From assembly GCA_038329675.1 (NCBI GenBank), contig JBBQNE010000001.1:1-61376 (forward strand): a DNA stretch of 61,376 nucleotides, read 5' to 3'. Position 1 is the first letter of the stretch, and every line of letters starts with the position of its first letter. Of the stretch, positions 45,243 through 45,598 are shown piece by piece. Source of the DNA: Hyphomicrobiales bacterium. GTDB lineage: Bacteria; Pseudomonadota; Alphaproteobacteria; Rhizobiales; Hyphomicrobiaceae. A program made the translations under genes and the position numbers. Below the pieces are notes generated by a model. That model was given only the letters and a program-made list of their open reading frames with translations, did not search any database and was not told where the DNA came from.

Positions 45243-45362
45243 GACAATCGTGTCGTTTGAGGAGGTTTCGGCGCACCCCTACAGGAGATCGGACGGCGGT
45301 TCTATCGAGACGATGTCGCCGATACCGGCTCATTGGCGCGAAAACCCAGCAGCCGGCGTCGC

Positions 45363-45576
45363 ATATGTCGACGATCGCAGGATTGATCGACATAGCGAAC
45401 CTTATATATCGATCGCTTCGACACGTCCCGCCCCTCATGTCGACAAATATCAATTTAATCGACTTATCTGATCCGATATGTCGACGTGATCGACACGTTC
45501 CCACACATATGTCGACATTATTGCGTTATATCGACATATCCGCCATAACATGTCGATCAAGCAAACGTCGATCAAG
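45363..45576. repeat. iteron-like array of ATGTCGAC / TCGACAT motifs with ~72-bp higher-order periodicity
   Basis: TCGA cores at 45368, 45387, 45409, 45418, 45440, 45459, 45481, 45490, 45512, 45530, 45553 and 45568. Spacings alternate about 22/9/22/19, and the pattern recurs every 71-72 bp. Includes the 10-bp palindrome ATGTCGACAT (45509..45518) and the conserved block TCGACACGTYCC-N8/N9-ATGTCGACA twice. Confidence 0.85.
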
Positions 45577-45598
45577 CGAACATGGGTAGCGACTGGCC

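Follow-up and report, generated by a model that had tools for sequence, protein, structure and literature searches.

A palindromic lattice of probable operators beside a SoFic-type Fic gene, likely bound by the winged helix-turn-helix domain of the gene's own product

Introduction

SoFic-type Fic proteins make up a widespread single-gene anti-phage system in which the enzyme AMPylates EF-Tu. The subject treated here, a repeat array in front of a gene of this type, bears on how SoFic stays silent and on what switches it on. The array lies in a stretch of 61,376 nucleotides of Hyphomicrobiales DNA (the window, by which we mean the whole stretch), in the spacer between leuS on the minus strand and a Fic gene on the plus strand. 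An earlier note, made from the letters of this DNA, had labelled the array 'iteron-like' and left four candidate explanations standing side by side: autoregulatory sites for the winged helix-turn-helix (wHTH)-like C-terminus of the Fic protein, control of leuS, a relic iteron set, and a methylation-sensitive TCGA switch. Our analysis favours the first of these and drops the other three together with the label. In our reading, the array likely consists of tandemly amplified operators bound by the wHTH of the adjacent gene's own product, probably for autorepression.

The array and the adjacent Fic gene

The protein encoded beside the array matches the PDB entries of SoFic (9tch and 3eqx) with E values of about 1e-140 and the PADLOC SoFic model PDLC03963 at 2.8e-116, the latter across profile positions 8-359 of 361, and by sequence we regard it as the orthologue of Shewanella oneidensis SoFic. 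Within its C-terminal domain, residues 381-393 form a putative recognition helix. An AlphaFold2 model built from the single sequence reached a mean predicted local distance difference test score of 33.6 and was unusable, so that the helix is assigned from the sequence pattern together with the Pfam wHTH domain. Directly downstream, a yggS-like gene overlaps the Fic stop codon and no AS1-like small gene is found there, which sets the locus apart from EcSofic with its AS1 antitoxin (PMC12249575).

At 51% G+C, the spacer is richer in A/T than the window as a whole (60% G+C), as the earlier note had remarked. TCGA cores number 13 in the spacer, a density of 36.5 per kb compared with 8.1 per kb outside it; they lie at the positions then given for at least 12 such cores and at 45305. 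The spacer also contains 5 of the 17 window copies of ATGTCGA and 4 of the 6 copies of ATGTCGAC. Eleven exact TGTCGA/TCGACA hexamers fall between 45363 and 45571, where they follow a fixed order: a long palindrome (L, TGTCGA-N15-TCGACA), 13-14 bp, a short palindrome (S, TGTCGA-N5-TCGACA), and again 13-14 bp. Oriented hexamers start at 45366, 45387, 45407, 45418, 45438, 45459, 45479, 45490, 45510, 45531 and 45551, with steps that cycle through 21, 20, 11 and 20 bp; the spacings of 22, 9, 22 and 19 bp reported earlier are the offsets between TCGA cores. Across the 61-kb window, every zero-mismatch match to L (n = 2) or S (n = 1) sits inside the array, and matches with one mismatch occur at 45438 and 45407 and, outside the array, at 58567.

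A repeat search recovered a 29-nt family whose three copies, at 45386, 45458 and 45530, follow one another at intervals of 72 bp, in agreement with the 71-72 bp superstructure of about three units that had been proposed. Tandem Repeats Finder missed these degenerate 72-bp units, its sole detection being a 15-bp tandem duplication, two copies of GTCGATCAAGC(A/G)AAC at 45552-45581. This duplication, previously seen as a direct repeat at 45552 and 45567, stands where the expected partner of the terminal half-site would be. Other details of the earlier note also hold, namely a 12-mer occurring twice (TCGACACGTYCC, at 45418 and 45490) and a perfect palindrome at 45509 (ATGTCGACAT), and its remark that a phasing of about two helical turns has the look of cooperative operators fits the lattice. 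The elements are listed in Table 1.

Table 1. Positions of the array, its elements and associated features in the window
Feature	Coordinates	Strand	Description
Spacer	45243-45598		356 bp, between leuS (minus strand, start 45242) and the Fic open reading frame (plus strand, 45599-46897)
Candidate operator array, whole	45363-45571	.	about three 71-72 bp units, each with one long (L) and one short (S) TGTCGA palindrome
L1	45366-45392	.	TGTCGA-N15-TCGACA, 0 mismatches, flanks cATA...TAg
S1	45407-45423	.	TaTCGA-N5-TCGACA, 1 mismatch, 14 bp past L1 as the lattice predicts
L2	45438-45464	.	TGTCGA-N15-TCGACt, 1 mismatch, A/T-rich spacer, 14 bp past S1
S2	45479-45495	.	TGTCGAcgtgaTCGACA, 0 mismatches, 14 bp past L2
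L3	45510-45536	.	TGTCGA-N15-TCGACA, 0 mismatches, 14 bp past S2; left half is the palindrome ATGTCGACAT
Terminal half-site	45551-45556	.	TGTCGA, exact hexamer, 14 bp past L3
SoFic-type Fic gene	45599-46897	+	predicted array binder; Pfam Fic_N, Fic and SoFic-like_C (wHTH)
Putative wHTH recognition helix	46739-46777	+	GIAKRQTASEYLK, residues 381-393; sequence pattern and Pfam wHTH domain
C-rich 156-bp stretch	45607-45762	+	context outside the operator; absent from L001; bracketed by GGCCATGACAAC and GGCAGTGACAAC

Arrays in related loci

We compared the window with 80 loci that encode relatives of its Fic protein (51-78% identity, from many phyla), giving 81 upstream regions in all, with hexamer positions counted from the conserved Fic N-terminus. 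The density of TGTCGA/TCGACA falls from 21.8 per kb at -100..-1 to 13.0 per kb at -200..-101 and 4.2 per kb at -300..-201, the background being 0.99 per kb. Spacers from TGTCGA to TCGACA measure 15 nt in 42 cases and 5 nt in 22, while in 28 cases the two overlap as TGTCGACA; those from TCGACA to TGTCGA measure 13 nt (n = 36) or 14 nt (n = 42). A lattice unit is composed of L (27 bp), a linker of 13-14 bp, S (17 bp) and a further linker, 71-72 bp in total. Across loci, the consensus of L reads ATATGTCGA-taaaat.gaaaatta-TCGACATAT and that of S reads (tt)GACA-TGTCGA-cg.ca-TCGACA-TAT. When the window is aligned with its closest relative, L001 (a metagenome-assembled genome of Hyphomicrobium aestuarii), the hexamers are in register and the spacers between them have diverged.

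Clustering of the open reading frames (ORFs) within 2.5 kb of the Fic gene recovered the order leuS, fic, yggS-like gene in 24 of the 80 loci, from Hyphomicrobiales, and in the window. The other 56 lack leuS and have no neighbour in common, and many of them carry the lattice (for example, L015, L027, L032, L046, L063, L074 and L079). By these comparisons, the array accompanies the Fic gene, not leuS. The earlier note had asked whether the array always travels with the Fic gene; it does so across phyla, apart from the modules described below that have no Fic gene nearby. Upstream of Fic relatives, the number of exact hexamers per array ranges from 2 to 15; the median is 6 in the syntenic group, where the maximum is 15, and 5 elsewhere (Mann-Whitney p = 0.0015), the window having 11. 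Furthermore, in S. oneidensis and in L015, L032, L046 and L074, the S element occupies the 17-bp gap between promoter-like hexamers (TTGACA/TTTACA...TAAGCT).

A separate bump in hexamer density was seen inside the Fic coding region at +300..+399 of L001-L080 (27 matches, 3.4 per kb compared with about 1 per kb). A conserved codon pattern, and not a site, is the probable cause, and the window has no hexamers there.

Hexamer variants follow the wHTH helix

Nineteen loci have no TGTCGA upstream, and 14 of them carry another hexamer on the N15/N5/N13-14 lattice, as judged by an exact-match test or by eye. No upstream lattice was found in the remaining five, three of which (L077, L078 and L080) have their Fic gene inside an operon; L077 and L078 have an array just 3' of the gene, and the contig of L080 stops at the Fic stop codon. 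Over all 81 upstream regions, the hexamer is TGTCGA in 48, TGTCGC in 12, TGTTCA in 4, TGGGTA in 3, TGTCCA in 2, and TGTCGG and TGTCGT in 1 each, with 10 regions lacking an assigned class. A further variant, TGCACT, occurs in the 3' array of L077. All units of a locus use one common hexamer.

The variant in use follows the wHTH segment GIAKRQTASxYLK, which corresponds to residues 381-393 of the window protein. Where hexamer positions 4-5 are CG, residue 386 is Q, as in the window, or E, with H in a single locus. With TCA hexamers it is V or A, in L006, L008 and L066 and, independently, in L065; with CCA hexamers it is V in L007 and K in L038; with GTA hexamers it is K, in the context TRKTAA; and with TGCACT it is N. 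Moreover, residue 390 is R in 11 of the 12 CGC loci. Residues 386 and 390, spaced one helical turn apart, covary with operator hexamer positions 4-6 and are likely specificity residues, with contacts to these bases being predicted. Since mutual information over all alignment columns was noisy, the analysis was confined to these two low-entropy columns.

In a neighbour-joining tree of the Fic domain alone, specificity switches fall on at least three separate branches, and the V/A-type loci are sister to Q-type loci within the leuS-syntenic clade. Operator and helix have changed together there, at one unchanged genomic position. In an independent set, obtained through a DNA search for the TGTCGA lattice, all 59 scorable SoFic genes have Q at position 386.

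Comparison with published Fic proteins

In S. oneidensis, the 300-bp region preceding the SoFic gene co-elutes with the dimeric wild-type protein but not with the monomeric L31D mutant; of three 100-bp sub-fragments, F1, the one nearest the start codon, is bound best, and a random fragment with a G+C content equal to that of F1 is unbound (bioRxiv 10.64898/2026.07.09.737422). The dimer is required for AMPylation and apparently also for DNA binding, and transcriptional regulation was not analysed; the words palindrome, inverted repeat, consensus and footprint are all absent from the main text of this preprint (bioRxiv 10.64898/2026.07.09.737422). The SoFic upstream sequence given in its Table S2 contains five hexamers. 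F1 itself reads ...cTTTACA-TGTCGAttgaaTCGACA-TAAGCT...tta-TGTCGA-taaaag, that is, an S element in the 17-bp spacer of promoter-like hexamers, followed by a downstream half-site. SoFic of S. oneidensis (SO_4266, mloA) and the window protein are alike in being orthologous and sharing the same AKRQTAS helix, and the bound fragment holds the same TGTCGA-N5-TCGACA element and half-sites as the window. The two differ in that S. oneidensis has about one module and the window about three, adjoining leuS, and binding in S. oneidensis is located to 100-bp fragments.

A different palindrome pair, TGTATAGA-N11-TCTATACA, occurs in fragment F3 of the SoFic upstream sequence, at about -270 to -200 relative to the start codon; behind it comes a near-repeat whose right arm is imperfect (TGTATAGA...tCTATACA). 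The pair is a probable operator belonging to a different regulator or to the divergent neighbour.

A second precedent is CccR (YPK_0951), a Fic-HTH toxin of Yersinia pseudotuberculosis that represses its own promoter as a dimer through AGATAATCAT-N26-ATGATAATCT near the -35/-10 boxes, its regulatory and toxic activities being separable (PMC9755527). CccR resembles the system described here in combining a Fic domain with a C-terminal HTH/wHTH in a dimer, and in having an inverted-repeat operator in the 5' region of its gene. The two proteins are distant, however, with 29% identity between CccR and SoFic over 45% of CccR length, and CccR uses a single palindrome, whereas here (A)TATGTCGA half-sites alternate between N15 and N5 spacings in a unit repeated about three times. 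The decamer palindrome of CccR was not found in the array sequence.

The match to the PADLOC SoFic model also likens the window protein to the single-gene SoFic anti-phage defence catalogued by PADLOC and DefenseFinder, and a defence role is predicted here. The papers on the SoFic defence system that we consulted for comparison describe no DNA element as part of the system, and a literature search for TGTCGA with Fic returned nothing relevant. Self-regulation by a Fic-wHTH protein (CccR) and promoter binding by SoFic are already known; the papers searched contain no description of the half-site, the two-spacing lattice, the amplified 72-bp unit, the natural variants in specificity, the 3' arrays or the phage orphans.

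Modules away from SoFic promoters

We also searched from the DNA side with an exact composite pattern, TGTCGA-N15-TCGACA-N13/14-TGTCGA-N5-TCGACA. With 24 specified bases, its chance rate is about 1 per 2.8e14 positions per spacing option for equiprobable bases, so chance matches should be negligible. The pattern matched at least 120 metagenome stretches and 33 viral contigs. Among the 120 metagenome matches listed, 62 adjoin the 5' end of a SoFic-type gene that points away from the array, and about 19 begin 3-61 bp after the stop codon of such a gene; 23 are without a Fic gene in at least 450 bp of sequence on both sides, and 14 are without one where the sequence is short on one side.

SoFic genes with 3' arrays form a subfamily whose proteins share 48-54% identity with the window protein; several of these genes are located behind hsdM in type I restriction-modification operons and have no upstream array. 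Metagenome loci of this kind are L086, L088, L089, L111, L118, L119, L127, L142, L164, L165, L167, L168, L180, L194 and L199, and among genomes there are L077, with the TGCACT variant, and L078, with hsdS downstream. After the 3' arrays come hsdS or unrelated small ORFs of 32-39 aa, and in L118 and L142 arrays flank the SoFic gene on both sides. A giant array lies in L093 (1995-2564), where 35 TGTCGA/TCGACA hexamers occupy 570 bp, or about eight units, of a 21-kb metagenome contig and extend to the end of the examined DNA.

Orphan modules, with no Fic gene nearby, number at least 69, of which 32 are on viral contigs (L201-L233 except L212) and 37 in metagenomes (for example, L084, L095, L109 and L161); two additional viral orphans, L234 and L235, carry a TGTCGC lattice. 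The 69 comprise 63 distinct sequences in 54 clusters. Their L spacers are 78% A/T, ATA/TAT flanks are present, and although ORFs of 100 aa or more take up 77% of the sequence in these loci, 37 of the 69 modules fall outside them. With these features, orphan modules look genuine. Their neighbours are mutually unrelated and include the terminase large subunit, head protease, DnaB-like helicase, serine integrase, structural genes and uncharacterised proteins, and modules are found in either orientation relative to neighbouring genes. Hidden Markov models of the SoFic C- and N-terminal domains, run against six-frame translations of the orphan loci, found no wHTH homologue, and Fic fragments or a distant Fic protein in four loci.

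Among the 33 viral contigs with a module, one also has a SoFic gene; in the whole viral collection, nine contigs have a detectable SoFic relative and one of the nine also has the module. SoFic relatives are rare in cultured phages, with 3 of 29 matching records covering at least 80% of the query and the best being 43% identical, and a 349-aa phage neighbour of an orphan module gave no tblastn match in cultured phages. SoFic might act in trans through the orphans, on a regulon or on promoters of phages; alternatively, the orphans could be decoys or a trigger carried by phages.

Proposed mechanism and alternative explanations

In the mechanism that we propose, each wHTH of a SoFic dimer would read one (A)TATGTCGA half-site. 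Half-sites follow one another at 21, 20, 11 and 20 bp, which approximates whole helical turns, and would therefore all lie on one face of the DNA, with dimers bound side by side. An L, an S and one additional half-site, placed no farther than about 100 bp from the start codon, may have made up the ancestral module. As S lies inside the promoter spacer in several relatives, its occupancy by a dimer should block RNA polymerase, and occupancy of S and the flanking L would result in negative autoregulation of the toxic AMPylase, as with CccR. In Hyphomicrobiales, the window included, duplication would then have raised the L+S unit to 3-4 copies. Repression and cooperativity are what we infer, as is the effect of the amplification. 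We are confident that SoFic binds the array, given the covariation of hexamer and helix, the association across phyla and the presence of the motif in the SoFic-bound fragment, and we consider autorepression its probable net effect.

Several points weigh against this account. Binding by SoFic is a prediction for this organism, founded on covariation and on the published binding of SoFic to a motif-bearing fragment, and the covariation derives from few independent lineages. A simple scan of 45100-45900 for sigma-70 promoters and terminators matched no promoter and no terminator, and across loci the promoter fit over exact S elements is modest, with 3.0-3.4 of 6 positions in the -35 box and 2.4-2.6 of 6 in the -10 box. 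Owing to extra DNA in between, a distance of about 200 bp may separate the array of the window from the real start codon (see below). Furthermore, modules just 3' of SoFic genes (about 20 loci) mean that occlusion of the own promoter cannot be the sole role of the module, and the 69 orphans have no Fic gene nearby.

In a live but unlikely alternative, the array is bound by SoFic and its main purpose is something other than promoter occlusion: it could serve as a docking or storage platform that keeps dimers beside their gene, the number of units setting the amount of protein held, or as an operator for neighbours (leuS here; hsdS or small downstream ORFs elsewhere). Arrays of 2-15 hexamers, and 35 in L093, are far above what repression needs, the 3' arrays of operon-embedded genes sit between fic and hsdS or small ORFs, S fits promoters weakly at many loci, and the dimer is needed for AMPylation and apparently also for DNA binding (bioRxiv 10.64898/2026.07.09.737422). 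Against this, the exact placement of S in a 17-bp promoter spacer, in S. oneidensis and the four loci named above, is a classic repressor arrangement, CccR is a demonstrated autorepressor, and catalytic silence of DNA-bound SoFic is unsupported. It is considerably less probable that another host or phage protein binds the lattice and merely controls SoFic genes. The main argument for a different or additional binder comes from the 69 orphan modules, which have neither a SoFic gene nor a SoFic_C homologue in the examined DNA, 32 of them on viral contigs outside the nine with a SoFic relative. Yet the hexamer variant switches with the SoFic helix in one conserved genomic context, SoFic binds a motif-bearing fragment in vitro, the Fic gene is the sole gene common to the loci, and the orphans are explicable through SoFic acting in trans.

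Explanations that dispense with a dedicated binding protein, or with the Fic gene, fare worse. Palindromes could act as hairpins in a 5' leader RNA or as DNA cruciforms, and the plus strand of 45355-45600 does fold to -79 kcal/mol (z = -3.9 against shuffles), with palindromy kept in the variant hexamers; such a low folding energy, however, is expected of any palindrome array, and the stems measure 6 bp only, with loops of 5 or 15 nt. Stems should drift independently, whereas the use of one hexamer per locus indicates concerted change; in addition, the TGT start is conserved, linkers are fixed at 13/14 bp, the variant tracks protein residues, and modules occur in both orientations relative to neighbouring genes. 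A search for known RNA leaders or riboswitches, such as a T-box for leuS, with Rfam covariance models found no match in 45100-45900 on either strand at E <= 1. We regard this explanation as highly improbable. A relic iteron or origin set, a TCGA methylation switch or a leuS regulatory region can hardly be the answer either, even if the region is A/T-richer, its repeats are phased and every site in the window has a TCGA core. Iterons are direct repeats of 17-22 bp beside a rep gene, accompanied by an A/T-rich unwinding element and DnaA boxes. Those of pPS10 (RepA) and R6K (pi) resemble the array in being phased repeats upstream of a gene with a winged-helix product, and titration or holding of protein by multiple sites is possible in both cases; here, in contrast, half-sites are inverted, the product is a Fic AMPylase and the chromosomal context is conserved. 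No rep or par genes were found among the array flanks in the window, which are leuS and the yggS-like gene.

An iteron-regulated replicon is not supported, given the alternating half-sites, the leuS, fic and yggS-like neighbours and a synteny conserved in 24 chromosomal loci. Methylation of TCGA fails as a general principle, since equivalent arrays in sister loci use TGTTCA, TGTCCA, TGGGTA, TGTCGC and TGCACT, none of which contains TCGA. Control of leuS is not supported as the primary role, since 56 of 80 loci have the Fic gene without leuS, and the hexamer changes with the Fic helix inside the leuS-linked group.

Implications for SoFic and phages

The analysis supplies an operator grammar, made up of a half-site, two spacings on a one-face lattice, a 72-bp unit, and likely specificity residues with natural swaps. 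With this code, the SoFic regulon becomes predictable in any genome, and both SoFic regulation and its possible interplay with phage DNA become directly testable. Modules beyond the own promoter, 3' of operon-embedded genes and in phage genomes, suggest that DNA binding is possibly part of sensing or counter-defence. More speculatively, and we hold it to be rather doubtful, the L+S lattice might be a portable 'SoFic box', its specificity set by two helix residues, that phages carry on purpose. If so, phage modules could be decoys soaking up dimeric, AMPylation-competent SoFic; they could be a cue that draws SoFic away from the promoter of its gene and sets off the defence; or they could be phage promoters controlled by the SoFic of the host. 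In each of these cases, the DNA-binding domain of a defence toxin would be linked directly to phage DNA.

The Fic start codon and leuS

The conserved part of the window Fic protein begins at about residue 68 of the annotated ORF, and an ATG at 45550, in the region of the terminal half-site, aligns with the start codon of L001. In comparison with L001, the last operator of the window is separated from the conserved Fic N-terminus by about 250 additional bp (45552-45581 and 45595-45774), which consist of the 15-bp tandem duplication and the C-rich 156-bp insert. As the insert is bracketed by repeats, the start candidates ATG 45599 and GTG 45767 both lie in duplicated context. The insert is in frame at 168 bp, and its G+C by codon position, 0.58/0.80/0.65, is atypical when set beside 0.64/0.42/0.77 in the rest of the gene; the stretch 45553-45766 (214 bp) matched nothing in the remainder of the window and nothing in the first 80 related loci. 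To judge from the sequence, the annotated ATG 45599 may not be the true start, and GTG 45767, which is preceded by aaggactgagg, is a plausible one.

On the leuS side, GGTCAAG (CTTGACC on the leuS strand) is conserved 40-100 bp upstream of the array in the Hyphomicrobiales loci L001, L005, L007-L009, L011-L013, L050, L056 and L057. It is likely the -35 box of the divergent leuS promoter, and the window's own spacer is without a copy. The leuS gene of the window (42552-45242, minus strand) has an in-frame TAG at 44544-44546, at the conserved Q of M-Q-x-N-W-I-G-R-S (KVRLM*ANWIGRS), which splits it into ORFs of 232 and 654 aa. The gene could be a pseudogene, the stop could stem from an error in assembly or sequencing, or this essential gene could have undergone a C>T change recently.

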